Below are positions 671 through 46,153 of a stretch of 46,713 nucleotides of DNA, in pieces. The notes under the pieces are model-generated. The model was not told the origin of the DNA. It made no database searches and was given only the letters and a program-made list of their open reading frames with translations. A program made the translations under genes and the position numbers. The first letter of the stretch is position 1; every line of letters begins with the position of its first letter. Origin of the DNA: a phage; the sequence record PZ379183.1; one strand, 5' to 3'.

Positions 671-687
671 TAGCACTTTTTGCCTAA
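671..687 (+). promoter_or_regulatory. TAGCAC-N5-GCTAA motif copy (variant TAGCACTTTTTGCCTAA)
   Basis: Motif followed by CATAAT-like element and CATCGAAACGA leader before ATG at 751. Confidence 0.5.
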
Positions 688-750
688 CGCAATAATGCCA
701 TGGATGGCATAATTATCTCATCGAAACGAGAGGCACAAAGGAAAACGAAA

Positions 751-939
751 ATGGCTAAGCGCATCACTAAAGAACTTAAAGTCCTGAATAAAGAAAACGT
801 AATCACCATCCTGACAATGTTCGGATACAACGAAGAGTCAGCGATTGCAAAGGTTGAGGCTGGTTACGATGTTGCAGTACGTAGTATGCCGGAAGCAACC
901 TCAAAAGGTATCGCCGACTTCCTGGCTACCTGCTACTGA
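751..939 (+). CDS. hypothetical small protein
   Basis: ORF track 700..939, start moved to internal ATG preceded by AAGGAAAACGAAA RBS-like leader. Confidence 0.4.
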   Translation: MAKRITKELKVLNKENVITILTMFGYNEESAIAKVEAGYDVAVRSMPEATSKGIADFLATCY

Positions 940-994
940 GTTATCTTACAAGGCATCTCGCGGGGTGCCTCAATAAGACAACTGGAGAAACAGC

Positions 995-1180
995 ATGAAA
1001 ACTAAAATGGTACATAAGAGCGAAGTTAAGATTGGCGATACTGTTATCCATCGTGGCTATCTTAGAACTGTAAATGCCAACACTTTTAGTAAGGATGAGT
1101 TTATGGGACTACTTCTTTGGGGCGACTCCTACCGGCTTGGGCAGGAGATGGTTGAAGTCATAATTGATGTTAAGTTTTGA
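995..1180 (+). CDS. hypothetical small protein (61 aa)
   Basis: ORF with GGAG RBS; stop immediately followed by TAGCAC motif. Confidence 0.4.
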   Translation: MKTKMVHKSEVKIGDTVIHRGYLRTVNANTFSKDEFMGLLLWGDSYRLGQEMVEVIIDVKF

Positions 1181-1182
1181 AT

Positions 1183-1198
1183 AGCACGAATTGCTAAA
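1183..1198 (+). promoter_or_regulatory. TAGCAC-N5-GCTAA motif copy (TAGCACGAATTGCTAA)
   Basis: Exact consensus copy directly after stop of 995..1180, followed by TATAGT-like element. Confidence 0.5.
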
Positions 1199-1253
1199 CC
1201 TTCCGCAAGGCCATTTGATATAGTGGCCTTATTGAAGCAAAGCAAAAGAGGAT

Positions 1254-1487
1254 GTGATGGAAAGGAGCAAATATGAAAGAGAGATTATCGGGCTTAATGG
1301 CGAGCGTGCTATTGTTGATGTGTATCGCACGCTATCAGCGTTCAACGTTACAGACCCGGCGTGTCAGCATGCAATTAAAAAGCTTCTATGCATGGGTTTG
1401 CGAGGCCACAAGGACGTAATTACTGACCTTGATGACGCAATAGACTCACTGAACAAGATGAAAACTTACCTGGAACAAACGAAATGA
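1254..1487 (+). CDS. hypothetical protein (77 aa)
   Basis: ORF with AAAGGAG RBS. Confidence 0.5.
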   Translation: MMERSKYEREIIGLNGERAIVDVYRTLSAFNVTDPACQHAIKKLLCMGLRGHKDVITDLDDAIDSLNKMKTYLEQTK

Positions 1488-1717
1488 TTACAATTAACCT
1501 GTCAGAGAAAGATGCAGCAATCCTTAAATCGATCATAATGAAGCCGATGTACTCTACGCTCACCTTTGAGCAGATGCGTGTCGTAAAAGAGACTAGCGCG
1601 CAAATCAACAATCAGCAGTTCGACGTATCAGACTTCGAGTCATCTCGCCAGTACGAAGCTCTAAGCATCCAGAATGCTGGCTACCTCACTAACTGGGATA
1701 AGGCGACAAAGAAATGA
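1484..1717 (+). CDS. hypothetical protein (77 aa)
   Basis: ATGA start/stop overlap with upstream ORF (translational coupling). Confidence 0.5.
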   Translation: MITINLSEKDAAILKSIIMKPMYSTLTFEQMRVVKETSAQINNQQFDVSDFESSRQYEALSIQNAGYLTNWDKATKK

Positions 1718-1866
1718 TTTATTACGTTCACACATACTATACGGGAAAATTCAACAGCGTTAAGCATATTCGGGCTTATGAGTGTTACGAAGATGCAAAA
1801 TCTCAGCTGGACGTTCTTGGAGGGGGTGTTGAGTGTTATGTTCTTCGTGATGAAATCGGTGAATAG
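1714..1866 (+). CDS. hypothetical small protein (~50 aa)
   Basis: ATGA overlap with upstream ORF; stop TAG is the first triplet of the next TAGCAT motif. Confidence 0.35.
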   Translation: MIYYVHTYYTGKFNSVKHIRAYECYEDAKSQLDVLGGGVECYVLRDEIGE

Positions 1867-1879
1867 CATGAATTGCTAA
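1864..1879 (+). promoter_or_regulatory. TAGCAC-N5-GCTAA motif copy (TAGCATGAATTGCTAA) plus ~60-bp conserved leader
   Basis: Motif followed by CCGGAGAAATCCGG hairpin and CATAAT; near-identical 60-bp copy at 40758-40820. Confidence 0.5.
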
Positions 1880-1937
1880 ACAATTGCCGGAGAAATCCGG
1901 CATAATTACCACATCGACAACGAGATGGAGTATAGAT

Positions 1938-2150
1938 ATGAAAATTAAAATTATCGACGTGAACTACATACCAGAAGAAGGCGTTCTGACACTTGAAGAA
2001 TGCGGGTTTAAGGTTGGTGACGTATTAGAAGTAACCGGTCGGTTCGGGTGTGGTAGCTTATCAGCTCGAGCGATTCGTGATACTGAGTTAGTATCAATAG
2101 GACAGATGGTTAGTTTTGAAGAAGGCGAGTACAAGGTGGTCGAAGAATGA
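1938..2150 (+). CDS. hypothetical protein (70 aa)
   Basis: ORF track 1884..2150; start placed at internal ATG with GGAG RBS because 5' part overlaps conserved leader. Confidence 0.45.
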   Translation: MKIKIIDVNYIPEEGVLTLEECGFKVGDVLEVTGRFGCGSLSARAIRDTELVSIGQMVSFEEGEYKVVEE

Positions 2151-2326
2151 AATTACAGCAAAGTAACCCTAAGCTCCAGGCTAACAACTTCGATGGTTAC
2201 ACAACATTTATCATCGCCCAGGCTTTCGGTTTGCATGATGAACCTAAGGTTCATACTATCCACTTAAATGAAGAGCAAGCTCGAGAACTGGCTTTCGAGA
2301 TTCTTGATCAATTGAATAAAATTTAA
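2147..2326 (+). CDS. hypothetical small protein (59 aa)
   Basis: ATGA overlap with upstream ORF; uninterrupted frame read manually. Confidence 0.35.
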   Translation: MKLQQSNPKLQANNFDGYTTFIIAQAFGLHDEPKVHTIHLNEEQARELAFEILDQLNKI

Positions 2327-2336
2327 GGTTTATAAA

Positions 2337-2759
2337 ATGAAATTAAGCAAATCTCAAAGGGAAGAGTTGAAGGGCAAGTTCGGTGGTCGCTGCGCTTATT
2401 GTGGGTGTGAACTACCTGAGAAAGGCTGGCATGCTGACCATGTTGAACCGGTGCTACGTAAATCTGAGGTATGCATGAAGTCAGCGGAGAAAGGAACTTT
2501 CAAGCTGAAGGCGACAGGTGAGTTTAATCGACCACAAGCTGATCGAATGGAAAACCTTTACCCTGCATGTGCTCCATGCAACCTCATGAAAACTTGCTAT
2601 TCCCTTGAAATGTTCAGGGAACAGGTGTCTCTTCAAGTCGCTCGCGGGCGTAAGAGCAGCATGAATTTTCGCACGGCAGAGCGGTTCGGCCTCATCTCCA
2701 TAGTTGAGGATCCAGTTGTTTTCTGGTTTGAGAAGTTTGAGCAAATTAACAAAATCTGA
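2337..2759 (+). CDS. HNH-family endonuclease
   Basis: Cys pairs CAYCGC and CAPCN flanking H-x-D-H-V-E-P and conserved Asn, typical HNH zinc-finger nuclease signature. Confidence 0.6.
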   Translation: MKLSKSQREELKGKFGGRCAYCGCELPEKGWHADHVEPVLRKSEVCMKSAEKGTFKLKATGEFNRPQADRMENLYPACAPCNLMKTCYSLEMFREQVSLQVARGRKSSMNFRTAERFGLISIVEDPVVFWFEKFEQINKI

Positions 2760-2769
2760 GGATAGAGAA

Positions 2770-2904
2770 ATGCATACTGGGTTAGTGATGGGTGAAGTTC
2801 TGGTTGAAGCATTGCCATGGTTACTCTGGTCATTGGGCTTCATGATTATTTACATGATTTCAGCAGCCGTAGATGACGCTAAAAGCGATCCTAACGAACA
2901 ATAA
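2770..2904 (+). CDS. small hydrophobic (membrane) protein
   Basis: Internal ATG of ORF 2704..2904 with GGATAGAGAA RBS; translation dominated by one hydrophobic stretch. Confidence 0.3.
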   Translation: MHTGLVMGEVLVEALPWLLWSLGFMIIYMISAAVDDAKSDPNEQ

Positions 2905-2922
2905 TTTAAAAGAGGTGATTAC

Positions 2923-3084
2923 ATGATTAAGATCGTATTCATTGGTGAGGATGATTATATGGCTTGTTTGAAGCATGGTGACGTATTCTATGCAGAGCCT
3001 AGCGAAGATGGCAATGGGTACTTCATTAAAAACAAGCACGATGAGGAGCTTTACATAGCAAACCACGAGGCTCTTGTTTACTAA
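2923..3084 (+). CDS. hypothetical small protein (53 aa)
   Basis: GAGGTG RBS then ATG; stop overlaps next ATG. Confidence 0.35.
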   Translation: MIKIVFIGEDDYMACLKHGDVFYAEPSEDGNGYFIKNKHDEELYIANHEALVY

Positions 3085-3224
3085 TGGATAACTACGAAAC
3101 ACCAAGCCAGTGGGCTAAACGGATGATGGATGAGGCTAAGACTGGCGAGGTTGCCATGATGTACTTCGAGCTAATGAATCTATGGAAAGAGCGTGAAGAT
3201 AAAATGGATAGCACGAATTGCTAA
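3084..3224 (+). CDS. hypothetical small protein ending in -DSTNC
   Basis: Frame checked manually; last codons are encoded by the TAGCACGAATTGCTAA motif itself. Confidence 0.35.
   Translation: MDNYETPSQWAKRMMDEAKTGEVAMMYFELMNLWKEREDKMDSTNC
3209..3224 (+). promoter_or_regulatory. TAGCAC-N5-GCTAA motif copy
   Basis: Exact consensus copy, followed by CCATATAAT and CATCAAACAACGAAGAG leader before ATG 3284. Confidence 0.5.
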
Positions 3225-3283
3225 ACATGACAGGCATGGATGCCATATAATTAACCCATCAAACAACGAAGAGAGATAGAGAT

Positions 3284-3421
3284 ATGAAACGAATGAGATG
3301 GTTCCCTTACGAATTTGAATTCATTGATGACTTGATTTACTTCCACGAAAAACAAGGTACCGAATTCATTTGCGATGGTGATAATCGCGAAGTCTCATGG
3401 ATGCAGGAGGATGATGAATAA
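3284..3421 (+). CDS. hypothetical small protein (45 aa)
   Basis: ATG after GAGAGATAGAGAT leader; stop overlaps next ATG. Confidence 0.35.
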   Translation: MKRMRWFPYEFEFIDDLIYFHEKQGTEFICDGDNREVSWMQEDDE

Positions 3422-4299: not shown

Positions 4300-4333
4300 C
4301 CAAATTAAGAAACCAATAATCCTGGGGGATTAA

Positions 4334-4715: not shown

Positions 4716-4768
4716 AAGAAGTTCTACTCTCTGTTTGTTTCATATCTCTCGTTGTTGTTCGATACTTC

Positions 4769-5380: not shown

Positions 5381-6952
5381 ATGAGTGAAACATTAGTATG
5401 GGAAGAAATGACGCCAGCAGAAAAGATGGCAGTTAAGGCTATATCCACTCATAGTTTCGAGGGATTCTTGCGGGTGTGGTTCCAACTTACCCAGGGCGAG
5501 CGATACATCCCTAACTGGCATCACAAATACCTGTGTCGAATCATTGACGAGATTATCGCTGGTGAGCGCAAGGACACAATCATTAACATCGCTCCAGGAA
5601 GTGGAAAAACAGAGATAGCTTCAATTCACTTCCCGGCCTACTCGATGGTTAAGCTAAAGAAGGTCAGGAACCTGAACATCTCGTTTGCCGACTCACTTGT
5701 TAAGCGTAACTCCAAGCGAGTTCGGGACCTGATTAAGTCTGTTGAGTTCCAGGAGTTATTCCCATGCAAGTTCGGTACGTGCAAGGATGATGAGCTTCAA
5801 GTTCTGGATGAGTCTGGTAAGGTTCGGTTTGAGTCAATATCTAAGGCTGCTGGAGGCCAAATAACCGGCGCAAGGGGTGGATATATAACGGATTCATATA
5901 GCGGAGCGGTTCTGTTAGATGATTTTGACAAACCAGCCGACATGCTTTCTGCTGTTTTTCGCGCTAACAATCACGTGATGCTAAAGAATACAATACGCTC
6001 TCGTAGGGCGAGCTCCGTAAAAGGAAAGGCGACGCCGATTATCTCTATCCAACAGCGCCTTCATGTGAATGATAGTACGTGGTTCATGATGAATGGCGGT
6101 ATGGGTATTAGCTTCGACTTGATTAAGATACCGGCGCTCGTAACTGAGGATTACGTCGACACGCTTCCTGACTGGATTAAGCGGCAATTCATTGATGACG
6201 TTCTATCAAGCGAATATATTGAGCGTGATGGTGTTAGGTACTATAGCTATTTCCCTGGCAAGGAATCTGTTCACGACCTAGTTGCAATGTGGGATTCTGA
6301 TAGCTATACATTCCTTAGCCAGTATCAGCAAGAACCAGTAGCACTTGGCGGCAACCTGATTAACGTAGACTGGCTTCAACGCATTAGCGACACTCTGCGA
6401 CCGCCAGCTAAGTACGATTACAGGTTTATGGTCCTTGATACTGCGATGACAACCAAAAGTTACAGCGACTTTAGCGTCATGCAGCTATGGGGTTATAAGG
6501 ATGGGAAGATTTATCTGCTTGACCAGCGGCGCGGTAAATTTGAAGCTCCTGAGCTCGAGGCTGAGTTATTGGATTTCGAGAAGATGGCTAGGGCATCCAA
6601 TCAGATAGATGGCATCCTTCGTAAAATCATCATCGAGAAGAAAGCCTCTGGTATTGGCCTGATTCAATCAGCCGGAAGGGTTATGCGAACGCCTATCGAG
6701 CCGTACGTTCCGGATAACGATAAGCTGACTCGCGTAATGAGTGCATTGCCGCAGATTAAAGCTGGTAACGTAATCCTTCCGGAGTCTGCTACTTGGCTTA
6801 ATGGCTTGCTAACGGAGATTGCGGCATTCACGGCAGATGATTCACATGTTCACGATGACCAGATAGACTGTTTGACAATGGCCGTAAACCTGGTACTGAA
6901 CATTGCAGAAGACCCTAAATCGAGGATGATGCGCCTCGCTGGCATCAAATAG
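5381..6952 (+). CDS. terminase large subunit
   Basis: ORF track 5369..6952; start at ATG after GGAGAG; Walker A-like GSGKTE near the N-terminus and C-terminal acidic nuclease-like region; position before portal. Confidence 0.85.
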   Translation: MSETLVWEEMTPAEKMAVKAISTHSFEGFLRVWFQLTQGERYIPNWHHKYLCRIIDEIIAGERKDTIINIAPGSGKTEIASIHFPAYSMVKLKKVRNLNISFADSLVKRNSKRVRDLIKSVEFQELFPCKFGTCKDDELQVLDESGKVRFESISKAAGGQITGARGGYITDSYSGAVLLDDFDKPADMLSAVFRANNHVMLKNTIRSRRASSVKGKATPIISIQQRLHVNDSTWFMMNGGMGISFDLIKIPALVTEDYVDTLPDWIKRQFIDDVLSSEYIERDGVRYYSYFPGKESVHDLVAMWDSDSYTFLSQYQQEPVALGGNLINVDWLQRISDTLRPPAKYDYRFMVLDTAMTTKSYSDFSVMQLWGYKDGKIYLLDQRRGKFEAPELEAELLDFEKMARASNQIDGILRKIIIEKKASGIGLIQSAGRVMRTPIEPYVPDNDKLTRVMSALPQIKAGNVILPESATWLNGLLTEIAAFTADDSHVHDDQIDCLTMAVNLVLNIAEDPKSRMMRLAGIK

Positions 6953-6965
6953 CACGTTTTGCTAA
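6950..6965 (+). promoter_or_regulatory. TAGCAC-N5-GCTAA motif copy (TAGCACGTTTTGCTAA)
   Basis: The TAG is the terminase stop codon; followed by GGATGGCTTATAGT and ACGAGAGGAG leader. Confidence 0.5.
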
Positions 6966-7021
6966 AGACGTGCCGCCAAGGATGGCTTATAGTTACTTCA
7001 CGCAAACGAGAGGAGTAAAAA

Positions 7022-15360: not shown

Positions 15361-15365
15361 ATTGA

Positions 15366-15382
15366 TAGCACTTTTTGTTAAA
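15366..15382 (+). promoter_or_regulatory. TAGCAC-N5-GCTAA motif copy (variant TAGCACTTTTTGTTAAAG)
   Basis: Followed by TGTATAGT and CATTCATCGAAACGAAA leader before ATG 15442. Confidence 0.5.
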
Positions 15383-15441
15383 GACCAAATCGCGGATTGC
15401 TGTATAGTTCATTCATCGAAACGAAATGAGATATTAGTGAA

Positions 15442-26581: not shown

Positions 26582-26649
26582 TTTCGTATTCCTTAGAAGG
26601 TGTGTTTCGTTTCAATGGAGTAATGATATCTCATCCTTGAGATTTGTCT

Positions 26650-26665
26650 TTAGCAATTGGTGCTA
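26650..26665 (-). promoter_or_regulatory. TAGCAC-N5-GCTAA motif copy (minus strand, TAGCACCAATTGCTAA)
   Basis: Encodes the C-terminal STNC and stop of the methyltransferase; followed on the minus strand by GATATC-type element and CATTGAAACGAAACACA leader. Confidence 0.5.
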
Positions 26666-27339
26666 TTTGCAATGAAGACGGCTTTTGCAAAACCGCGAGG
26701 AGTTAGGCTGCGAATTACCTTTGTCTTATTGCTCTTCCCGCCTAGCTTCTTGTATTGGTCAGAGAATCCACCGTTAACGTCCACTGGAATTGCCTCTGGC
26801 CATTTAAACCCATTGCCATACCAAATGCATGTCTTCTTGGGATATGCGTCTTTTGGCTTTATTAGGTCGCTAAAAAACGGGTGTAAATCATCTTCCGGCA
26901 AATAGCCTCCGTATTCATATGGGTGGAAGGTGTTATCAGGTTTTCGCCAAAGTGATGACAGTACGCTGATTGGGTTCTCGATCATGTATGGTACTCCGTA
27001 TTTTTCAGCAAGATTAAAAGCAATCTTGCACGTCTCCGCAGCTTCAATTTGGAAGTTAGGGTTAGCTATACACTTGCGTTCAAAGTGTCTTGATCCGCTC
27101 ACGGCTAAGTCAGTGCATGGAGGGAACGCCATTATAAAATCAGGTTTCACATCAAAATCGAAGTCAGCATCTATCCATGCGTTAACGTATGTGATGTTCT
27201 CATGCTCAACCTTTGCATTTAAGTCACTGTAGCTGCCGTGGTCAGACTCATCAAAGTTGAAACAGTAGCAAGTGTGGCCAGCTTCAGCCCAATCCTTTAC
27301 CGCCAGACCAGAACCATCAAATAAAGACCAGATAACCAT
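26650..27339 (-). CDS. DNA (cytosine-5) methyltransferase (putative, short)
   Basis: N-terminal SLFDGSG (SAM-binding motif I), FPPC (Pro-Cys catalytic motif) and IENP (ENV-like motif) in C5-MTase order. Confidence 0.55.
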   Translation of the reverse strand: MVIWSLFDGSGLAVKDWAEAGHTCYCFNFDESDHGSYSDLNAKVEHENITYVNAWIDADFDFDVKPDFIMAFPPCTDLAVSGSRHFERKCIANPNFQIEAAETCKIAFNLAEKYGVPYMIENPISVLSSLWRKPDNTFHPYEYGGYLPEDDLHPFFSDLIKPKDAYPKKTCIWYGNGFKWPEAIPVDVNGGFSDQYKKLGGKSNKTKVIRSLTPRGFAKAVFIANSTNC

Positions 27340-27397
27340 TTTAAAATTCTCTCTCGTTGTTTGTGTTGCTAACTATACCCGGTTTTGCGGATCAGTT

Positions 27398-27413
27398 TTA
27401 GCAATTAGTGCTA
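27398..27413 (-). promoter_or_regulatory. TAGCAC-N5-GCTAA motif copy (minus strand)
   Basis: TAGCACTAATTGCTAA on minus strand about 60 nt upstream of the methyltransferase start. Confidence 0.45.
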
Positions 27414-27439
27414 TGTTTACGCGTAACCGATGTAACTCG

Positions 27440-28081: not shown

Positions 28082-29053
28082 ATGACATTTAAAGTTTATA
28101 CGAACGACGAGCTAACAAATGAATCCTATCACGAAGAGCAAGACCATATCTCTGGCTCTTCACTGGCTGAGATTCTTGCTACCTCACCAGCTAAATGGAA
28201 GTTTAAGCAGCGCAATAACTCTAGCGCAGCACTTAAATTTGGCACACTAAGTCACTGCATGATGCTAGAGCGCGAGGTATTTGACTCAACATACATGCGA
28301 GCTACTGACTTTGACGAAGTGGAAGGATTGATTACTAGCCAAACGGCTTTATCCGCAGCGCTTAAAAAAGTTGGAGTTTCAGGCACGTCAGGGAAGGGAT
28401 ATAGCGAGCTCGTGGAGATGATGTATAAATCTGGTGAGGATTGGCCTGTTAAATGGTTAATTGAGCAGCAGGAGAGCGCTGAGGCGTTAATTAGTGGCAA
28501 AGAGCTCGTTACTGCGAAAGATTACGATAAGGTAATCTCAATGCGCGAGGTTCTTACTAATATCCCAGCTTACGATGCGATTATTAACTCACCAACAGCA
28601 CAGAAAGAGCTATCAATCTTTGGTGAGATTCTTGGGTGTGGTGTTAAGGTTAGGCTTGATCACGTGGATGTTGTTGATGGCGTGGTTTTCATTACTGACT
28701 ACAAGACGACGGCGGACGCAAGCCCGAGAGGATTTGGCAAGTCAGCTTATGACCATGGATACCTGTGCAAAATGAGCCTTCAGCGTGACTTGTTCGTGAA
28801 GGCATTTAACGAGAAGCGTAAGGTTGTGGTTCGACTTCTGGCGCAGGAAAAAACGGAGCCTTACTTACCAATGAGCTACACGCTTACAGATGAACAGCTT
28901 CGCATTGGTCGTTTACAATATTGTGAGGCACTAGCAACATACAAACAGTGCAAGGAGCTTGATGTATGGCCTGGGTATAGCAATGGGATTACAGAGCAAG
29001 ATTTGATGATTCCTGAGTGGGTAAGTAAGCAGTATCAAGAACTTCTAAAATAG
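28082..29053 (+). CDS. PD-(D/E)XK exonuclease (YqaJ/RecE/lambda Exo-like)
   Basis: VRLDHVDVVDGVVFITDYKT region resembles the Asp...Asp/Glu-x-Lys nuclease core; adjacent to the annealing protein gene. Confidence 0.6.
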   Translation: MTFKVYTNDELTNESYHEEQDHISGSSLAEILATSPAKWKFKQRNNSSAALKFGTLSHCMMLEREVFDSTYMRATDFDEVEGLITSQTALSAALKKVGVSGTSGKGYSELVEMMYKSGEDWPVKWLIEQQESAEALISGKELVTAKDYDKVISMREVLTNIPAYDAIINSPTAQKELSIFGEILGCGVKVRLDHVDVVDGVVFITDYKTTADASPRGFGKSAYDHGYLCKMSLQRDLFVKAFNEKRKVVVRLLAQEKTEPYLPMSYTLTDEQLRIGRLQYCEALATYKQCKELDVWPGYSNGITEQDLMIPEWVSKQYQELLK

Positions 29054-29066
29054 CACTAATTGCTAA
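29051..29066 (+). promoter_or_regulatory. TAGCAC-N5-GCTAA motif copy (TAGCACTAATTGCTAA)
   Basis: The TAG is the exonuclease stop codon; followed by GGTATGAT and ACGAAAGAGAG leader. Confidence 0.5.
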
Positions 29067-29123
29067 AGACAAAATCAAAAGGTGAGGTATGATTGCCCCA
29101 CTTAAACGAAAGAGAGATAGTTA

Positions 29124-32815: not shown

Positions 32816-32837
32816 TGTAAAGTCTCCATTTGTAAAG

Positions 32838-32853
32838 TAGCACTAATTGCCAA
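32838..32853 (+). promoter_or_regulatory. TAGCAC-N5-GCTAA motif copy (variant TAGCACTAATTGCCAA)
   Basis: Between primase stop and tail fibre start; plus orientation although flanking genes are minus. Confidence 0.4.
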
Positions 32854-32880
32854 AATTCATTCTACCATCTTTCAGGCAAT

Positions 32881-34300: not shown

Positions 34301-34351
34301 TTTCTTCTCTCCAATAAAAAAGGATGTACCGATTATGGCACATCCAATTAT

Positions 34352-34825
34352 TTACTCTTTAGCTTTTCGTGCGGCTTCGTTGGCAATCTTATTCTTGCGC
34401 CACGGTCGACAAGGTGGCTTTGTTGCTAGTTCAGCCTCAGTAACCACGCGTAGCATGTGGCGCTTCTTGCATCTAAGCGTCAGAGGCTTACCGTTACCGT
34501 CAAATTGCAGGTCTGGTCGGCAGAAAGTAGCTCGGAACCCTCCCTTATTTCTCTTGTACGCATTATGTGCTCGCTGGGCGCCTCGAGCCGAAATCATACC
34601 GCGATCAAACCATTGTTCTACAGTCTGGTGAGATACATTTAACTGCTTGGCGATATTGGCCTTCGTGCCGTAGAAGTCAAGAACCATCTCCAGACGAGCT
34701 CTTAGCCCAGCCTTTACTTCATCTTTCAATACGTAGTAGCCTGACGGTCGTTTGCGCTGTTTCTTGTCTTGCGTGCGGATGGTTCCGTTATTGCCGTTGA
34801 TAGTTCGCTTGTCAATTTCACACAT
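34352..34825 (-). CDS. Cro/YdaS-like HTH DNA-binding protein (putative regulator)
   Basis: GTKANIAKQLNVSHQTVEQWF helix-turn-helix segment, basic C-terminal region; first gene of a minus-strand operon from a divergent control region. Confidence 0.4.
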   Translation of the reverse strand: MCEIDKRTINGNNGTIRTQDKKQRKRPSGYYVLKDEVKAGLRARLEMVLDFYGTKANIAKQLNVSHQTVEQWFDRGMISARGAQRAHNAYKRNKGGFRATFCRPDLQFDGNGKPLTLRCKKRHMLRVVTEAELATKPPCRPWRKNKIANEAARKAKE

Positions 34826-34848
34826 CTCATTACCTCAATAGCATTTTT

Positions 34849-34864
34849 TGTTAAACAATAGGGT
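34849..34864 (+). promoter_or_regulatory. TAGCAC-N5-GCTAA motif copy (variant TAGCATTTTTTGTTAA)
   Basis: In the divergent intergenic region between the HTH gene and the helicase gene. Confidence 0.4.
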
Positions 34865-34921
34865 CGATAGTTGTTATTATACAGCAATGCAACGAACTAA
34901 CAAAATGTCGGGATATTTAAA

Positions 34922-36917: not shown

Positions 36918-37337
36918 ATGAAAATCACAGACAAAGGTGATTACCTCGAGTTCTATGGCGGACCGGTGAAGTCATGCCCAAAGGAAGACGATGAACAAAT
37001 CTTCTGCTCTGATTGGGTGAAATACAACTATCCGCAGATTGTTTACTGGCACACGATTAACGAAAATAAAAAGAGCATTGGTCAAGCAAGAAAAGACCAA
37101 GCCAAGGGGCTTCTCAAAGGTGTGTCAGACTGCTTATTTCTGATACCTGAGTCATTGCGTGGCGGTTATCCATTTGGCGCCATAGAGTTAAAGAGGGCTG
37201 GTAAAACGCAAGCAAGCCCAGTTAGCAATGAGCAAAAGTCATTCCTAAAAAGCGTAAGGGAATCAGGCGGTTTCGCAGCGGTGGCTTATGGAAGAGAGGG
37301 TTTTCTTGCGGCATTCGCAGAGATGATAAGAAAATAG
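36918..37337 (+). CDS. VRR-NUC-type nuclease (putative)
   Basis: Small PD-(D/E)XK-like core with D...E-L-K (GAIELKRAG); translationally coupled to helicase (stop/start overlap). Confidence 0.5.
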   Translation: MKITDKGDYLEFYGGPVKSCPKEDDEQIFCSDWVKYNYPQIVYWHTINENKKSIGQARKDQAKGLLKGVSDCLFLIPESLRGGYPFGAIELKRAGKTQASPVSNEQKSFLKSVRESGGFAAVAYGREGFLAAFAEMIRK

Positions 37338-37350
37338 CACGAATTGCTAA
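37335..37350 (+). promoter_or_regulatory. TAGCAC-N5-GCTAA motif copy
   Basis: The TAG is the stop codon of 36918..37337; followed by TGTATTAT (extended -10-like) and CATCGAAACGAAACACA leader. Confidence 0.5.
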
Positions 37351-37415
37351 AGACGAATTGGTGAGTTGGTGTATTATCAACTCATCGAAACGAAACACAC
37401 AAAGAGAGAAAGAAA

Positions 37416-38203: not shown

Positions 38204-38455
38204 ATGTTGGGATTAGATTTTCAGCCTGGGCATTATGACTTAGTACATGGTAGTAGTGGGAATAAGTTTAGAGCAATCCCTATTTCTGACTGGTTTCCTC
38301 CTGACTACGTAGATGTTAATGCGAAGACTAAAGATGGCAAGTGGGTACAGATTTATTATTCACCATCATGTGGAAACCTGTGCATGACTGACCTGGACAA
38401 GAAATTAGCAATTTGTGCTACTTTGTTGGACTTTTGGTTGAAAGAGGTTGAATGA
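38204..38455 (+). CDS. hypothetical protein (83 aa)
   Basis: ORF in operon context. Confidence 0.4.
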   Translation: MLGLDFQPGHYDLVHGSSGNKFRAIPISDWFPPDYVDVNAKTKDGKWVQIYYSPSCGNLCMTDLDKKLAICATLLDFWLKEVE

Positions 38456-38536: not shown

Positions 38537-39670
38537 ATGGCAGCAGCAAAAATTACCACCGAGCAGTTGATCGAAGAACTGAAAAACGGCCTGACTAACA
38601 AGGCGATTGCAGAGAAGTACGGAATGAACATTCGAAACGTTGAGCTTCGTCGTAGCAAGTTGGCTAAGAGTGGGGTTGGGCATGGTAATGAAGGCATCAA
38701 GAAGCTAGTTCCTGATGGCTATCTTGTTAAAGGCACTTCAACAATGATTGATGCGGATGGTAATGAGAAGCTTCGCTGGGTTAAAACTTCCATCGACGAA
38801 CAGAAACAAGAAGAGATGCTTCAGCAGATTGTTCAGGCGCTTACAGATGAGCTCCCTCGAGAGACTCCGAAACCACTCAGTGAATCAAGCTATGAGGACA
38901 CCTTGAGCCTCTACCCCGTGTTTGATATGCATATTGGCGCAATGGCTCACCATGCAGAGTGTGGGGAGAACTACAGTACAGAAATTGCAGAGCGAGTGCT
39001 TAACCAATACTTTGATTATGCAGTTGCTAAGGCCCCGAATTCATCAAAAGCCGTATTACTGATTGGTGGAGACTTCCTTCACTCGGATGGAATGGAAGCT
39101 GTAACTCCAACCAGCAAGCACGTACTTGATCAAGATAGCCGTTATCATAAACTTGTCTACGTAGCTGTTCGTGCAACTCGCCGCGCCGTCAGTAAGATGC
39201 TTGACAAGCATAAAGAGGTTGAGGTTCAGATTATACCAGGCAACCACGACCTTTCTGGGATGATTTGGCTTCGAGCTGCAATGGCTGCCTTCTACATGGA
39301 TGAGCCTCGTGTAAATGTTGATGCCTCACCAGCCGCTCTTCACGTGACGGAGTTTGGTAAAACATTGTTGGGTTACTGCCATGGTCATGAATTGCGAAAG
39401 CCTGACACTCGTCTTTCAACTCTTGCGCGCGACCATCGCAAAGCATTTGGTAATGCTGAATACGTTTATACACATAGTGGCCATTATCATCATCAGACGG
39501 TTACTGAGGGTAATCTTGGAATTGATGAGTCACACGGTCAGTTGGGTGCTAAAGATGCGTACAGCGCAAACGGAGGGTATCGCTCTTATCGTCAGGCCTC
39601 AGTAATTATCTATAGCTCAGAGTACGGTGAAGTTGGTCGATTCACTTGCCGACCTGAAATGTTTAAGTAA
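38537..39670 (+). CDS. calcineurin-like metallophosphoesterase with N-terminal HTH-like domain
   Basis: Ordered motifs D-M-H, GGDFLHSD, GNHD, C-H-G-H, T-H-S-G-H-Y-H-H matching the metallophosphatase signature; N-terminal ~110 aa contain a sigma-region-4-like HTH. Confidence 0.65.
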   Translation: MAAAKITTEQLIEELKNGLTNKAIAEKYGMNIRNVELRRSKLAKSGVGHGNEGIKKLVPDGYLVKGTSTMIDADGNEKLRWVKTSIDEQKQEEMLQQIVQALTDELPRETPKPLSESSYEDTLSLYPVFDMHIGAMAHHAECGENYSTEIAERVLNQYFDYAVAKAPNSSKAVLLIGGDFLHSDGMEAVTPTSKHVLDQDSRYHKLVYVAVRATRRAVSKMLDKHKEVEVQIIPGNHDLSGMIWLRAAMAAFYMDEPRVNVDASPAALHVTEFGKTLLGYCHGHELRKPDTRLSTLARDHRKAFGNAEYVYTHSGHYHHQTVTEGNLGIDESHGQLGAKDAYSANGGYRSYRQASVIIYSSEYGEVGRFTCRPEMFK

Positions 39671-39686
39671 TAGCATTTTTTGTTAA
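39671..39686 (+). promoter_or_regulatory. TAGCAC-N5-GCTAA motif copy (variant TAGCATTTTTTGTTAA) plus hairpin
   Basis: Directly after the phosphoesterase stop; followed by GCCTCAAAGGATTGAGGC hairpin. Confidence 0.4.
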
Positions 39687-39743
39687 TAAAGCCTCAAAGG
39701 ATTGAGGCAAAATGAATAAACGATAACGAGATGAGGAGTTGTA

Positions 39744-40218: not shown

Positions 40219-40773
40219 ATGAAAAAGTTAATCATCCTTAATGCACCCCCTGGTGCTGGAAAAGATACAGTTGCAGATATCATTGTTAATCTTGGAATTT
40301 GCAAGGATAAGGTTTCATTCAAGTCACCAATGTTTAATGTTGCAAAAGGAATACTATCAAGCGATGAGTTTGATGAATTTATTAAGAATTACGATGACCG
40401 AGAGTACAAAGAATCACCACATGAATTTCTTGGTGGAATGACGGTTCGTGAATTTATGATTTGGATTAGTGAGTCAGTTATGAAGCCAGTCTTTGGTGAT
40501 GATGTTTTCGGTAAAAGGCTAGCGCAATCACTTGGTGATGGTTGCTATATCTGTGCTGATGGTGGCTTCGCTAGCGAGATTAATACTCTCATTGATTCAG
40601 GGGTTGAAGTTACTTTGATTAGACTTTTTAGGCCTGGCTATACTTTTGATGGAGATAGCCGCTCCTACATTCGCGGTGTCTGCGCAAGAGAAATTGACGT
40701 TCATGTTGTAGATGGTGATATTGATGGAACCTCTGCTTTGGTAATGCACGTAATAAATAGCACGAATTGCTAA
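40219..40773 (+). CDS. P-loop kinase (polynucleotide kinase or dNMP kinase-like)
   Basis: Walker A LNAPPGAGKDT at N-terminus; ATG 2 nt after the HAD stop with GGAG RBS; ends in -INSTNC encoded by motif. Confidence 0.55.
   Translation: MKKLIILNAPPGAGKDTVADIIVNLGICKDKVSFKSPMFNVAKGILSSDEFDEFIKNYDDREYKESPHEFLGGMTVREFMIWISESVMKPVFGDDVFGKRLAQSLGDGCYICADGGFASEINTLIDSGVEVTLIRLFRPGYTFDGDSRSYIRGVCAREIDVHVVDGDIDGTSALVMHVINSTNC
40758..40773 (+). promoter_or_regulatory. TAGCAC-N5-GCTAA motif copy plus ~60-bp conserved leader
   Basis: Exact consensus; following 60 nt nearly identical to 1864-1925, including CCGGAGTAATCCGG hairpin and CATAAT. Confidence 0.5.
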
Positions 40774-40831
40774 ACAATCGCCGGAGTAATCCGGCATAAT
40801 TACTACATCGAAAACAACAGAGGATTCAAAA

Positions 40832-42566: not shown

Positions 42567-44165
42567 TTACCCCAGCAATCGTGGATTAATGTAAATTTTA
42601 TCACCAATCAGGCATGTGTAGTTTTTCTCATCAAGCATAGGAATCAAGTGGTCCTTAATGCGAGTCATAATTCCAGCCTGAGCTTCAAAAGGTTTAACCT
42701 TGCGTGCAGCCTCATACAACGAGCGAACACCAACAACACCTTTACCATTCTTGCCCTGCTTAATCAGGATATCAACCAGCTTGTTCATCTCGGCATTGTC
42801 ACCAGCATGACCAGCAGCACTAGCGGATGATAAATAAGTCTTGCTTAGTTCGTTGAAAATCATAACCGCTTCCTGCATTGTATCCAGTTCAATCTCTCTT
42901 GACTTTTGAGGGCTGGATCCGGCTGGTGAGAACCAGTTACGAATTACGTGCAGAACAGAAGCGATGCGGATTGCTTGCTTATCAAACTTACCAAGAGCAC
43001 CGCGCAACATTGTGTGAGAATACTTGCCACCATCACCAAGATGAGGCTCCATCTCTTGACGAGCGCGGTTAAGGTAACGCATTGATGACGCGCTTACAGT
43101 AAGTTTCACTTCAACTTCATTCATAATCTCATGAACAAGACGGAAATAGTCTGCTTTCAGGCCGCCATCAATAGCCTCATAGGTTGAATCACCATTTTCA
43201 TCAACAAATACACGGTCGCCAAGAAATGATTTTTCACGCACCAGAAGGAAACGCTCAGATACACCAATACCACGCGCACCAGCATTCATAATGGCATTGA
43301 TTGTTTCATCCTGAGCAATTACGGAGATGCATCCCATAGCCACAAAGCTCATGTTATTTTCTGCGTTCGCACGGGCAATTGACACATTACCTGCATCCCA
43401 TGCTTTCAGCACGAGCTCGCTGTTCGTTTTCTTCGAGCCATCACCGTAAGTCATGCCTAACAGTGAGTTGACGCTAGTAGCCTCATCAGAGATTACCGCA
43501 AAATTACCCTGGCGATTGTTGATTCGCGCAAGACCTTCCGGAGTAGTATCGGAGACAGGGAATACTATATCGCATAGCTTCTCGAGCTTCTCCTCTAAAT
43601 CCTCCTTCTCCTCAAAAAGTGAAGCCATTTCAGAAGGTGATTTCTCCTGCTTCATCTCTTTAGCCAGAGCGGACAGTTTAGCCATAATCTTTTTTCGATC
43701 ACGTTTACGTACTTCATTCAACCGCTCAGTCTCAGCAATCATCGGCGCAATTGATAGCGAGTTAATGGCTGATTTACCAGTTGAAGGCGGCTGACTTGTT
43801 ACCACGTACAAAGATGTTGGCTGTTGGGTTCCATGATACTCGACAGTAAAACGCCCAAGCATTGCAGCAGAAACACAACCAAGAAAGTGCATGTAAGCTG
43901 ACGACTCAGGGAACTGAACCGAGCGAGCGATATTAGCCGATAGCTTACCAACAACATCAATATCATTACCGAGTGAGATTACTGGATACTTATCATTACC
44001 TGTATCAATCTCGACAGGTGCTTTCCAGAACGATTGAGACTGTCGATAGCCATTGGCATTAATAGCCACGCGAAGCGGTGGTAGGTTGTCATTGGCAGCG
44101 ATCGCCATAACTTGCTCAACAGATAGTTTATCTTCATTGAAATCAAACATTACTTCTCTCCGCAT
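42567..44165 (-). CDS. P-loop NTPase of unknown function (Walker A and B)
   Basis: Walker A SQPPSTGKS and Walker B-like FAVISDEA; 532 aa; early-type operon position. Confidence 0.5.
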   Translation of the reverse strand: MRREVMFDFNEDKLSVEQVMAIAANDNLPPLRVAINANGYRQSQSFWKAPVEIDTGNDKYPVISLGNDIDVVGKLSANIARSVQFPESSAYMHFLGCVSAAMLGRFTVEYHGTQQPTSLYVVTSQPPSTGKSAINSLSIAPMIAETERLNEVRKRDRKKIMAKLSALAKEMKQEKSPSEMASLFEEKEDLEEKLEKLCDIVFPVSDTTPEGLARINNRQGNFAVISDEATSVNSLLGMTYGDGSKKTNSELVLKAWDAGNVSIARANAENNMSFVAMGCISVIAQDETINAIMNAGARGIGVSERFLLVREKSFLGDRVFVDENGDSTYEAIDGGLKADYFRLVHEIMNEVEVKLTVSASSMRYLNRARQEMEPHLGDGGKYSHTMLRGALGKFDKQAIRIASVLHVIRNWFSPAGSSPQKSREIELDTMQEAVMIFNELSKTYLSSASAAGHAGDNAEMNKLVDILIKQGKNGKGVVGVRSLYEAARKVKPFEAQAGIMTRIKDHLIPMLDEKNYTCLIGDKIYINPRLLG

Positions 44166-44210
44166 TGTTTCTGAGCGGCCATTATATCAATAGCCGCTTA
44201 TAATGCATTA

Positions 44211-44223
44211 TCAATTAGTGCTA
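44211..44223 (-). promoter_or_regulatory. TAGCAC-N5 motif copy (minus strand, variant TAGCACTAATTGA)
   Basis: Followed on minus strand by TTGATATAAT (TG-extended -10-like) upstream of the ATPase gene; also encodes the C-terminal STN-stop of the upstream small ORF. Confidence 0.45.
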
Positions 44224-44381
44224 TTTAGTAAGATGCAATCTATCTTGTAGTAGTCAAAGTGATTTTCTGAAGATATTTCTTTGTTATATTTAAACTCCTG
44301 TGCTTTGAATTCTTCATCGAAAGCGGCAATCACTTCGCTTCCATCATAGTGTGTGCAACCACTTACAATGTATAATTTCAT
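44211..44381 (-). CDS. hypothetical small protein (56 aa) ending in -NSTN
   Basis: Manual translation; ATGA overlap with upstream gene. Confidence 0.35.
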   Translation of the reverse strand: MKLYIVSGCTHYDGSEVIAAFDEEFKAQEFKYNKEISSENHFDYYKIDCILLNSTN

Positions 44382-44767
44382 TTGTATTGAGCCTCAAAGT
44401 GGTAAGTTTCACACAACGTATAAAAGCCAACATCTTCGCTGCGATATAGCTGCCAGGCGTTGCCATCTTCATCGTAAATGTATCCAGCTGACTGACCAAG
44501 TCCGCTATGCATGTTGACCTGGTATCGCTTACCTTCTTTGAAGTCTTTCTTAACGCCAGACTTATGGTTAACCTTTGTGCAGTAAAGAGTTTTGGTTTTA
44601 ATGTATTTTCCACGTTCTTCCAGGTTGATCCATTTGCCGTCTTTTTTGATTTGCTCAAATTCAACTTCCTCAGCGACACCGTTAACCCACTGGTGAATCT
44701 TTTTAACGCGAGCTTTAAATAGCTTGTTGTCGTTGCTAATGAAATTTTTGGTTATCGTAGTAGTCAT
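44378..44767 (-). CDS. hypothetical protein (129 aa), Lys-rich
   Basis: AT-rich ORF in minus-strand operon. Confidence 0.45.
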   Translation of the reverse strand: MTTTITKNFISNDNKLFKARVKKIHQWVNGVAEEVEFEQIKKDGKWINLEERGKYIKTKTLYCTKVNHKSGVKKDFKEGKRYQVNMHSGLGQSAGYIYDEDGNAWQLYRSEDVGFYTLCETYHFEAQYK

Positions 44768-44808
44768 TATTTTAATCTCTTAGTTTTCCACATGAATTTG
44801 TTTGGTAC

Positions 44809-44928
44809 TTATTTGCGCACAATACGCACAACAATCTTATCAAACTTCTGAACTAAACCGTAAATCTTACCATCTAGCGACGCCATGAAAACCGCCTCTT
44901 CCATCTCGTCATAAAAGTTGTCGAACAT
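44809..44928 (-). CDS. hypothetical small protein (~39 aa)
   Basis: Internal ATG of ORF 44809..44994; the 5' part of the track ORF overlaps the conserved motif and leader. Confidence 0.3.
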   Translation of the reverse strand: MFDNFYDEMEEAVFMASLDGKIYGLVQKFDKIVVRIVRK

Positions 44929-44987
44929 GATCTCTTGCTCTCTTTCGTTTCGATGGAGTAAATATACGCCATCCGTGGCGGTGAGTT

Positions 44988-45003
44988 TTAGCAATTAGTG
45001 CTA
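44988..45003 (-). promoter_or_regulatory. TAGCAC-N5-GCTAA motif copy (minus strand)
   Basis: Followed on minus strand by GTATATTT and CCATCGAAACGAAAGAGAG leader. Confidence 0.5.
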
Positions 45004-45152
45004 TTTTTTCTGGCCTTCTCAATTGCCTTCAACATAATCTCGTGAGACTCAAGCAGGTCCTCGTTAAACCAGTCCCCGCAAGGCCAACCCTTTCCGCTGT
45101 AAGCACTAATTATTTCCAGATCGAAATAGTTTATATCAGATGGTAAAAGCAT
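44988..45152 (-). CDS. hypothetical small protein (54 aa) ending in -NSTNC
   Basis: Manual translation on minus strand; C-terminal residues encoded by the motif. Confidence 0.35.
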   Translation of the reverse strand: MLLPSDINYFDLEIISAYSGKGWPCGDWFNEDLLESHEIMLKAIEKARKNSTNC

Positions 45153-45355
45153 TATTCAATCACCTTAAAAGTTGCGATGCCGTGGATGATTACGTAATCA
45201 AGGCATTTAAGCGCCTGGAACGTGTCGTGATGCTTGTGTGGACGTTCGCCGGTAACAAGGCACATATCATCTTTAAACTCGGTAGCGTTGTATTCAGAGC
45301 CCTTATTGAAGGCGTCGTTAAAGTCTTTAATTATGTTAGTGCAAAGAAGTTTCAT
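45152..45355 (-). CDS. hypothetical protein (67 aa)
   Basis: GAGGATTAACATG RBS on minus strand; preferred over the overlapping plus-strand ORF 45140..45394. Confidence 0.45.
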   Translation of the reverse strand: MKLLCTNIIKDFNDAFNKGSEYNATEFKDDMCLVTGERPHKHHDTFQALKCLDYVIIHGIATFKVIE

Positions 45356-45356
45356 G

Positions 45357-45548
45357 TTAATCCTCTAAAATTTCAAAAATCAATCGACGCTTAACAGCGG
45401 CAATAACAAGGCCATTTTCAATGTAGCAGTAAACTGGCTTGAAGTTATCACCAACTACGTAACCATAAATTTCATCATAACTGTAATGCTTTCCACTACT
45501 GAATTCCCAGGTTCCATCATTAAGATTATTTAAGCACTTAACTTTCAT
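45357..45548 (-). CDS. hypothetical protein (~63 aa)
   Basis: Internal ATG of ORF 45357..45602 with AAGGAGCCGAATAATG RBS. Confidence 0.4.
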   Translation of the reverse strand: MKVKCLNNLNDGTWEFSSGKHYSYDEIYGYVVGDNFKPVYCYIENGLVIAAVKRRLIFEILED

Positions 45549-45559
45549 TATTCGGCTCC

Positions 45560-45745
45560 TTACCAGGGTAAACATTCGTCGCAGCCAAGGCCATCGCAGC
45601 ACAGATATTCATCATCTGACTGGAATTGCTTAGCAAGGTCGATATCGATGCGTCCGCGTAAAACCATATCAGTATAGTCACTGTTCAATCCAGTCAGCGC
45701 ACATTCCTGCTTTAATTGCTCAAATGCTTCGTCTTTAAGTTTCAT
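45560..45745 (-). CDS. hypothetical protein (~61 aa) with Cys-rich C-terminus
   Basis: Internal ATG with AAGGTGG RBS; C-terminal CCDGLGCDEC cluster. Confidence 0.4.
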   Translation of the reverse strand: MKLKDEAFEQLKQECALTGLNSDYTDMVLRGRIDIDLAKQFQSDDEYLCCDGLGCDECLPW

Positions 45746-45896
45746 TTTTAAACCACCTTTCTTTAAGAACCTGAACCCAAGACTTTGCATCATCTTCTGT
45801 CATGAAGAAACTTAATTTTGGGTACTTGTGAAACCCTTTTAACTCAACAACCCAATGACCATTACTGTAACTGTAACCAACTGTTTTTTCTGTCAT
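45735..45896 (-). CDS. hypothetical small protein
   Basis: Internal ATG of ORF 45735..46034 with GAGAG RBS; upstream part of the track ORF lies in a structured leader. Confidence 0.3.
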   Translation of the reverse strand: MTEKTVGYSYSNGHWVVELKGFHKYPKLSFFMTEDDAKSWVQVLKERWFKNET

Positions 45897-46137
45897 CACT
45901 GTCATCTCTCTATGTTTTCTTGTTATCGAAATCTCTTCAACGTACTCACTACAACTCGGGATTTTAAACCCGGCCCGGCATCCTATCAAAAGGACCCGCA
46001 AGGCGCTTTGGTGGGTAAGGTAACGCTTCCTCACATTGCGCGGTGTCGTTCACTCTTTTTGGTTCCTTTCGGAAGTGACTCAGAGTCCAGCACCGTTTCG
46101 ATGAATACATAGTAGCAACTTACTAATGATTGTGCAT

Positions 46138-46153
46138 TAGCAAAAAGTGCTAT
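46138..46153 (-). promoter_or_regulatory. TAGCAC-N5-GCTAA motif copy (minus strand, variant TAGCACTTTTTGCTAA)
   Basis: Followed on minus strand by CATCGAAACGG leader toward the right-end operon. Confidence 0.45.

Follow-up and report, generated by a model that had tools for sequence, protein, structure and literature searches.

The phage sequence PZ379183.1 (46,713 nucleotides, nt), which was analysed here as a whole and is hereafter called the window, is the complete genome of a T1-like siphophage, a coliphage of the Drexlerviridae with 44% G+C and a single tRNA-Arg. Among the phages of the collection, Escherichia phages ES and AN_ECEAS are its closest relatives, with ~91.5% identity across 86% of the right half. 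To our knowledge, T1-like phages have almost no canonical sigma-70 promoters and neither an RNA polymerase nor a sigma factor of their own, which has been a puzzle for annotators. In this study, the repeated element TAGCAC-N5-GCTAA of the window was analysed together with the -10-like hexamer and the leader that follow it, and each such unit is referred to as a module. The motif family is genuine, as 16 matches with at most one mismatch were found against 0.80 expected (standard deviation 0.98, maximum 4, 100 shuffles). The box closely matches the binding site (marbox) of the host activators MarA, SoxS and Rob, and we estimate a probability of about 60% that the copies, judged by their sequence, are class II marbox promoter cassettes served by these host proteins.

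The motif family itself is not new. The 2024 re-annotation of phage TLS described 21 copies of aaATAGCACnnnTTGnTAAAA as a 21-nt intergenic direct repeat ('DR') that shares its direction with the genes and lies ~76 nt 5' of start codons, mentioned like repeats in T1, Rtp and Rogue1, and found only three sigma-70-like promoters in TLS (PMC11447400). The window motif is the same element; it has the consensus aaATAGCACnnnTTGnTAAAA, is intergenic and co-oriented with the genes, and stands at a comparable distance from their start codons. A check of the relatives found the family in T1 (21 copies), TLS (19), Rtp (19) and AN_ECEAS (17), as well as in Vibrio phage Vc1, and in a scan of IMG/VR the contigs carrying multiple copies were mainly ~42-52 kb. 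The function of the TLS repeat was listed as an open question, for which stoperator, enhancer-binding or UP-like roles were proposed (PMC11447400). The recognition of the repeat as a putative marbox is new, and the TLS description also lacks the fixed -10 at +20, the nested hairpin and the conserved leader reported below. Literature searches found no paper connecting marboxes with phage promoters and no transcriptome or transcription start site map of any T1-like phage.

All 17 copies listed in the initial annotation exist, four of them at coordinates that were off by 1-10 nt (1183, 34849, 44211 and 46138 are corrected to 1182, 34839, 44208 and 46137), and 15 of the 17 are followed by the full downstream module. 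Two extra sites were found, namely a module at 34374(-) driving an HNH gene and an intragenic core at 38405-38420(-), which has no -10 and is probably non-functional. The 671 box carries a 1-nt insertion, and the 39671 and 46137 boxes have a weakened AAA. A supposed degenerate copy at 4201 (TAGCGCAATCGCTAC) is not a member of the family, as it falls below the matrix threshold used; the tRNA begins 26 nt further. The proposed placement near gene starts and across upstream stop codons was confirmed, with 72-83 nt from motif start to start codon in the window and a stop codon within the 16-mer in 8 of 17 modules when the list of open reading frames (ORFs) was compared with the module coordinates. 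Moreover, orientation tracks the downstream gene in 17 of 19 copies, at gene boundaries, the exceptions being the orphans at 32838 and 38405-38420. The TATAAT-like hexamer, sometimes TG-extended, and the CATCGAAACGA element are also genuine and stand in fixed register with the box. The suggestion of a promoter module that divides the genome into many short transcription units is thus supported. The description of the motif as 'phage-specific', however, does not hold, because it matches the host MarA/SoxS/Rob binding site in host class II promoter geometry, and an RNA-processing role for the motif itself found no support.

The anatomy of the module was read from a stack of 92 modules of five related phages, which were not realigned. 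The box consensus at module positions 0-17 is ATAGCACnWWTTGYTAAA, in which position 6 is C in 82 modules and T in 9; at position 13, 56 modules have C and 31 have T. The inverted repeat TAGCA...TGCTA noted previously does have arms of 5 bp, but the near-palindrome is probably incidental because the best-conserved flanks (A0, C6, A16, A17) are asymmetric and the symmetry ends at 5 bp. The best TATAAT-like hexamer begins at position 38 in 68 of the 92 modules and at positions 37-39 in 81, whereas its position in random windows is uniform. The profile of this -10 at positions 38-43 is T61 A73 T64 A58 A52/G23 T75. A G stands at -14 (position 36) in 65 modules; among the 68 modules with the hexamer at 38, this G is found in 50 and the full TG in 28. 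A conserved C-A-T-C-G-A-A-A-C-G-A begins 5 nt after the hexamer, so that positions 49-50 are C-A at the predicted -1/+1 (C57, A68), and the leader from position 50 onward reads ATCGAAAC…. The predicted start, C-A(+1)-TCGAAACGA, resembles that of the strong T7 A1 promoter, cc-A(+1)-TCGAGAGGG, which was read directly; the likeness fits with selection favouring efficient initiation or an unstructured leader. A second leader type, (A/G)TTGAAGCAA…CCAATCAG(A)GGA right before the start codon, follows hairpins with the -10 in the loop in several T1, TLS and Vc1 modules, and is distinct from the CATCGAAACGA type prevailing in the window.

The only TTG-containing hexamer of the module, TTGCTA in the box, lies 22 bp from the -10, and hence no usable -35 is present; TTGCTA was rejected as a -35 because this spacer is too long for sigma region 4. 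Canonical -35/-10 promoters were not enriched in the window (36 vs 32.7 in shuffles). The sigma-54 consensus has GG at -24 and GC at -12, 10 bp apart (TGGCAC-N5-TTGC), and a sigma-54 promoter was rejected, since the phage motif TAGCAC-N3-TTGC has AG rather than GG and its spacing is 2 bp short. A T4 MotA box was rejected on spacing, and an UP element was rejected because the invariant positions are G and C. The module is thus very likely a sigma-70 promoter without a -35.

The likeness of the box to host sites was measured with a matrix derived only from the 87 chromatin immunoprecipitation sequencing (ChIP-seq) sites of MarA/SoxS/Rob/RamA in Salmonella (PMC10268841 Table 1). The consensus of this host-derived matrix, GCACTAATTGCTAAA, is letter for letter the core of the window copies 27398, 29051 and 44988, which score 18.3, while the best host site scores 18.2. 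In the window, 17 sites reached at least the host 75th percentile (0.70 expected, shuffle maximum 3) and 9 at least the 90th (0.07 expected). Matches at or above the 75th percentile numbered 17 in AN_ECEAS, 20 in T1, 21 in TLS, 14 in Rtp and 12 in Vc1, against a shuffle expectation of ~0.5-0.7 for these genome counts; the real genome of T7, taken as a control, gave 1 match at or above the 75th percentile and 0 at or above the 90th. Furthermore, the base frequencies per position of phage and host sites are correlated (r = 0.84), and positions that are variable in the host are also variable in the phage. The elements read by helices 3 and 6 of MarA and RamA are CAC(G/T)-7N-AAA (PMC8811837), and the window boxes likewise are asymmetric sites of ~20 bp with GCAC and AAA 7 bp apart. 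These data suggest that the box is probably recognized by a protein of the MarA family.

The position of the box points in the same direction. In class II promoters, forward-orientation sites are clustered near -41 and overlap the -35 region, and no recognisable -35 is present (PMC10268841; PMC12052159; PMC6900184). The E. coli micF promoter, which was read directly, consists of GCACTGAATGTCAAA, 20 nt, TAGAAT, 7 nt and the annotated +1, and its box is centred at -41. In the phage modules, AAA and the -10 are likewise 20 nt apart in 68 of 92 cases, and in 81 the distance deviates from this by no more than 1 nt; gap and orientation are those of micF. All 17 window modules have the forward orientation, with GCAC distal and AAA proximal to the -10 and the gene, and the box centre is at -40 or -41 when counted from the predicted start site. 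They have a sigma-70 -10 and no -35. The match in sequence, orientation and position, the absent -35 and the sigma-70 -10 indicate that the modules fit class II marbox promoters. The modules of the window are listed in Table 1.

Table 1. Modules and isolated boxes of the window. Scores are those against the host-derived matrix; +1 positions are predicted, those of modules 10 and 13 being 34325 and 39720; box positions of stop codons count from 0.
Feature	Positions	Strand	Score	Box and surroundings	-10	Predicted +1	Start codon
Module 1	670..750	+	10.6	box ATAGCACTTTTTGCCTAACG with 1-nt insertion	CATAAT 708-713, with TG	~720 (CATCGAAACGA)	751; PHROG match from residue 18 of ORF 700-939
Module 2	1181..1256	+	17.2	-10 in loop of covarying hairpin AAGGCCA/TGGCCTT	TGaTATAGT 1219-1224	~1231	1257
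Module 3	1863..1937	+	16.0	upstream stop TAG at box 1-3; hairpin TGCCGGAgaaaTCCGGCA	CATAAT 1901-1906	~1913	1938
Module 4	3208..3283	+	17.2		TATAAT 3246-3251	~3258	3284
Module 5	6949..7021	+	16.3 (ATAGCACGTTTTGCTAAAGA)	terL stop TAG at box 1-3	TATAGT 6988-6993	~7000	7022
Module 6	15365..15441	+	16.1	immediately 3' of canonical terminator 15338-15357	TATAGT 15403-15408	~15415	15442
Module 7	26582..26666	-	17.5	upstream stop TAA at box 14-16; hairpin ATCTCAaggaTGAGAT	TATCAT 26628-26623	~26616	26581
Module 8	27340..27414	-	18.3	marbox GCACTAATTGCTAAA, identical to host ChIP consensus	TATAGT 27377-27372	~27365	27339
Module 9	29050..29123	+	18.3	upstream stop TAG at box 1-3	TATGAT 29088-29093	~29100	29124 (Erf-like recombinase)
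Module 10 (newly found)	34301..34375	-	14.6	box GCCGCACGAAAAGCTAAAGA within 3' end of Cro-like regulator gene; -10 enclosed by GGATGT/ACATCC, then TTTTTT (terminator-like hairpin of regulator gene)	CATAAT 34337-34332, with TG, 20 nt after AAA		34300 (HNH endonuclease)
Module 11	34838..34921	+	15.0	in 96-bp divergent region between Cro-like regulator gene and helicase gene	TGtTATTAT 34875-34880	~34887	34922
Module 12	37334..37415	+	17.2	upstream stop TAG at box 1-3; long G.U-containing hairpin across -10	TATTAT 37372-37377	~37384	37416
Module 13	39670..39743	+	8.6	weakened box (…GTTAATAA); hairpin GCCTCAAaggaTTGAGGC	CAAAAT 39708-39713 (poor)		39744 (PNK-phosphatase)
Module 14	40757..40831	+	17.2	upstream stop TAA at box 14-16; hairpin GCCGGAgtaaTCCGGC	CATAAT 40795-40800	~40807	40832
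Module 15	44151..44224	-	11.8	box end …TTGATAAT; upstream stop TGA at box 11-13; -10 in loop of hairpin AGCGGC/GCCGCT	TGaTATAAT 44186-44181	~44174	44165 or 44150 (helicase-like gene)
Module 16	44929..45004	-	18.3	upstream stop TAA at box 14-16; hairpin CGCCAcggaTGGCG	TATATT 44966-44961	~44954	44928
Module 17, first leftward unit	46035..46153	-	11.1	box …GCTAATGC	TACTAT 46114-46109, with TG	~46102 (CATCGAAACGG)	GTG ORF after unusually long leader (~69 nt)
Orphan marbox	32837..32856	+	17.9		no -10-like hexamer at module spacing (+20)
Intragenic core	38405..38420	-	11.8	TAGCACAAATTGCTAAT	none, and no leader

Under the reading as class II marbox cassettes, a monomeric host activator with a pair of helix-turn-helix (HTH) motifs, of the MarA/SoxS/Rob family, would bind the box. 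The box would occupy the -35 region, and the activator, as at micF, would bring in RNA polymerase and so stand in for the -35 contact. The -10 would be used 20 nt after AAA, often with TG or G at -15/-14, and transcription would start at the A of C-A-TCGAAACGA, to be followed by an A/G-rich leader of ~25-35 nt up to the Shine-Dalgarno sequence and ATG. Rob would be the likely reader in the unstressed cell, supplemented by MarA or SoxS when antibiotics, salicylate or oxidative stress act on the cell. As a result, ~17 small transcription units, most of them early or middle, would come under this host regulon. A wider picture is put forward tentatively from these sequence data, namely that the Drexlerviridae might drive most of their early and middle units from consensus class II marboxes, with a basal level set by Rob and raised by MarA/SoxS under antibiotics, salicylate, bile salts and oxidants. 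The regulon in charge of efflux (AcrAB-TolC) and porins might then also tune the phage programme, replicating phage DNA might soak up the regulators, and the -10 in the loop of a covarying hairpin might represent a new kind of nested promoter/RNA element.

The identification of the repeat as a candidate class II marbox turns it into a concrete hypothesis with named proteins (Rob, MarA, SoxS), bases and predicted starts. If it is true, a classic group of virulent phages links its gene expression to the multiple-antibiotic-resistance and oxidative-stress regulon of the host, which would have implications for phage-antibiotic synergy or antagonism and for how phages behave in the bile-rich gut. 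The modules would then also be ready-made promoters that are graded, compact and stress-responsive. It would further be relevant to phage TLS, whose receptor is TolC; activation of TolC by MarA, SoxS and Rob has been reported (Zhang et al. 2008, as cited in PMC6900184).

Several points weigh against service by the host activators. First, the phage box is tighter than the host consensus, with T1, A2, T10, T11 and T14 near-invariant, and this extra constraint, which produces the 5-bp palindrome, could mean a second or different binder. Second, the strong box at 32838 is an orphan in the wrong orientation. Third, MarA and SoxS are scarce without stress, and Rob has been reported to be largely sequestered without inducer (PMC10268841); for a virulent phage, dependence on these three proteins would be surprising. 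Fourth, the TG-extended -10 may give activity that is independent of an activator. Moreover, one relative with modules (Vc1) is recorded on Vibrio cholerae, and literature searches found no report of rob, marA or soxS affecting T1-like phages. Finally, the sequence searches may have missed a phage protein that folds like MarA but is small and highly diverged.

These searches covered all six-frame ORFs of five phages, in which phmmer at maximum sensitivity, with sequences of MarA and SoxS as queries, found no significant match (best E-value 0.28); Pfam found no AraC-type domain among 20 window proteins. Structures were modelled with AlphaFold2 (AF2) for two proteins only, a conserved Cro-like regulator and the DUF7174 protein. 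The latter, encoded by the first gene, was a recurrent sub-threshold match to MarA and was rejected as a candidate, as AF2 and Foldseek predicted a fold that is not AraC-like and is weakly RepE54-like. The Cro-like regulator is encoded at 34352-34825(-) of the window and has equivalents in T1 gp23, Rtp52 and TLS gp57. Its model (predicted local distance difference test score, pLDDT, 86.6) is of the single-HTH Cro type with Xfaso1, N15 and P22 Cro as best matches, and no MarA or Rob was among the 50 structure matches listed; an AraC-like nature of this protein was therefore rejected on the predicted model. Its N-terminal arm (DKRTxNGNNGTxRGxDxxxRKRP) is invariant and predicted to be disordered, and its C-terminal domain (GFRAxFCRPDLxFDxNGKP) is conserved; the PDB search gave nothing resembling either of them. 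The simplest reader of the box would therefore be a host factor, and we infer that Rob is the natural candidate without stress.

The most serious alternative is that a phage protein reads the box, either as an activator or as a repressor of the stoperator type by which early promoters are switched off, with the likeness to the marbox being convergent or exploited to compete with the host factor. This is unlikely on balance, and the same holds for its two candidates, namely a dimer of the Cro-like regulator on the TAGCA-N5-TGCTA palindrome, possibly for later shut-off, and an unrecognised small early protein. Essentially all Drexlerviridae carry the regulator (825 phage records), the modules 34839(+) and 34374(-) lie on either side of its gene, and its N-terminal arm is invariant, all of which would suit such a role; the 5-bp inverted arms of the core and the near-invariance of T1, A2 and T14 beyond the degenerate marbox consensus also fit, and stoperator or enhancer-binding roles were proposed by the TLS authors (PMC11447400). 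Co-occurrence cannot separate the regulator from the motif because both are universal in the family, including Vc1. However, the conservation of the box is asymmetric, as A0, C6, A16 and A17 lack symmetric counterparts and the palindrome is not extended, and a symmetric operator would not be expected to show strict co-orientation with genes. Among phages whose box is identical, the recognition helix of the Cro-like protein is free to vary and keeps no invariant residue, and the predicted fold of this protein is not the two-HTH type that reads asymmetric boxes of 20 bp. Furthermore, the exact host ChIP consensus together with the micF spacing would have to be a coincidence.

It is improbable that RNA polymerase alone suffices, with a TG-extended -10 and the box acting as an UP element or curved DNA for the alpha C-terminal domains. 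The box lies at the proximal UP subsite (~-46 to -38) and is flanked by A-tracts, the G at -14 in 50 of 68 modules with the -10 at position 38 would support an extended -10, and an 'UP enhancer' was suggested for TLS (PMC11447400). However, the full TG is present in only 28 of those 68, and an 18-bp motif that is invariant across subfamilies argues for sequence-specific recognition by a protein. In addition, UP elements have an A/T-only consensus, whereas G3, C4, A5, C6 and G12 of the box are invariant.

Most modules also contain an inverted repeat of variable sequence between the box and the -10, or around the -10, which was missed in the initial annotation. A perfect stem of at least 6 bp is present in 47% of modules vs 7.6% of random windows, and the spacer has a mean minimum free energy of -8.8 kcal/mol, that of random 37-mers being -4.5 kcal/mol (p ~5e-13). 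Folding is better on the sense than on the antisense strand (p = 3e-5), with 94 vs 60 G.U pairs, which shows that the hairpin is under selection at the RNA (sense-strand) level. In a sub-family of 11 modules from five phages, including window 1182, the TG-extended -10 forms the apical loop; 95.9% of cells are paired in this sub-family, whereas slid controls reached only 31-53%. Compensatory double changes occur in 7 of its 11 pairs, and the covariation score of 0.468 (0.173 in shuffles) was reached by 0 of 500 shuffles. The 3' arm of the hairpin extends to ~+6, so that the hairpin would form only in read-through transcripts from upstream or in sense single-stranded DNA. Intrinsic termination was mostly rejected as its role, as no U-tract follows most copies; the exception is 34374(-), in which ACATCC is followed by TTTTTT. 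Accordingly, the module hairpins were not called as terminators (sense strand, 1-20000) because their tails are not T-rich, and a scan with Rfam found the tRNA only. Three nested hairpins are annotated as terminators in the T1 RefSeq record. With low confidence, the hairpin is suggested to serve the upstream unit as a 3'-end or stability element; alternatively, it may protect the AU-rich -10 within polycistronic RNA.

These hairpins raise the alternative that the whole element works in RNA, with the TAGCA/UGCUA stem and the second hairpin as a processing, termination or stabilising signal between cistrons and the hexamer as an AU-rich cleavage site or tail. The strongly structured spacer, the folding bias, the G.U excess, the covariation in the one sub-family and the T1 terminator annotations are in its favour. 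Nevertheless, it is very improbable, since it accounts for the hairpin and not for the box; position 13 (C or T) breaks the box's own stem in a third of copies, the hexamer has a sigma-70 signature (A at 2, T at 6, TG upstream) in fixed register with the box, most hairpins lack a U-tract, and Rfam finds nothing. There is equally little to recommend a primary role as decoys, in which each genome's ~17-21 consensus marboxes, amplified as the DNA replicates, would titrate MarA/SoxS/Rob and so dampen the stress and efflux response with promoter activity being secondary: scores that equal or exceed those of the best host sites and conserved orphan boxes without a -10, such as 32838, agree with it, but a sponge needs neither the fixed 20-nt register nor co-orientation in 17 of 19 copies, and the idea is compatible with class II promoter cassettes rather than exclusive of them.

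The modules share several features with known systems. Like the class II MarA/SoxS/Rob (RamA) promoters of Enterobacteriaceae, they have GCAC, 7 nt and AAA, TTGCTAAA in the best sites, a forward box near -41, 20 nt from AAA to the -10 (micF), a sigma-70 -10 and no -35. Unlike these, they occur in ~17-21 near-consensus copies in one virulent phage genome of 47 kb and often overlap the upstream stop; the phage box is tighter, a covarying hairpin lies in the spacer or around the -10, the start and the leader CATCGAAACGA are conserved, and binding by host proteins is a prediction. The T4 middle promoters also lack a -35 and combine a sigma-70 -10 with an upstream box that contains TTGCT and is read by an activator. 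However, the MotA box of T4 has its centre at -30 and lies 11-13 bp from the -10, and sigma is appropriated by AsiA/MotA, whereas TTGCTA is 22 bp from the -10 in the phage and the proposed activator is a host protein; no MotA or AsiA-like domain was found among the proteins scanned. The PeSL (promoter-early stem-loop) cassettes of T4-type phages, reportedly described by Arbiol et al. in 2010, are likewise repeated intergenic cassettes of a promoter and a stem-loop that flank small early ORFs and serve as recombination joints. The promoter type differs, the stem-loop is inside the promoter here, and the comparison is one of features and not of homology. The stoperators of mycobacteriophage L5 resemble the phage boxes as many asymmetric, intergenic copies co-oriented with transcription, but they are bound by the repressor of a temperate phage and have no fixed register with a -10, whereas the phage studied here is virulent and has a box that matches the site of a host activator.

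The modules also seem to serve as joints at which small early genes recombine. Window 40758 has the promoter core of a different AN_ECEAS site, while its leader and gene are those of the orthologous site; this exchange of cassettes was seen in the comparison of window 40746-40850 with AN_ECEAS 33375-33480 and 40828-40935, with a breakpoint near CATCGA. The orphan marbox at 32837-32856(+) lies between the primase and tail-fibre genes, opposite to both, and is followed by the terminator of the primase gene. Its position is kept in T1 (34903), Rtp (33763) and AN_ECEAS (24397). HNH endonuclease genes are present at 33821-34300(-), directly behind the module at 34374(-), and at 2337-2759(+).

The rightmost leftward modules (window 46035-46102(-); Rtp 45903(-) and 46144(-)) have unusually long leaders or no obvious start codon, and the GTG ORF behind module 17 of the window has no family match; these modules may yield non-coding transcripts. 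At 21 bp from the marbox of the leftward module, an array of four 15-bp palindromes, TTGCA-N5-TGCAA, begins (46173, 46203 with one mismatch, 46220 and 46250; window 46173-46264). The same array is found in AN_ECEAS (38448-38539) and is absent from T1, TLS, Rtp, Vc1 and T7. Across the permuted end, it adjoins the DUF7174 gene, whose predicted model weakly resembles RepE54, and it may be an operator or iteron array. In addition, the two large AT-rich non-coding regions, 27414-27600 and 46330-46500, share an element of ~150 bp (…TTACGCAaTGGTTACATaAaAATATaTATATATATCAACCTTTTAC…TTATTATTATTATTATATATAT), which may be a hub of early promoters, an origin or a region for packaging.

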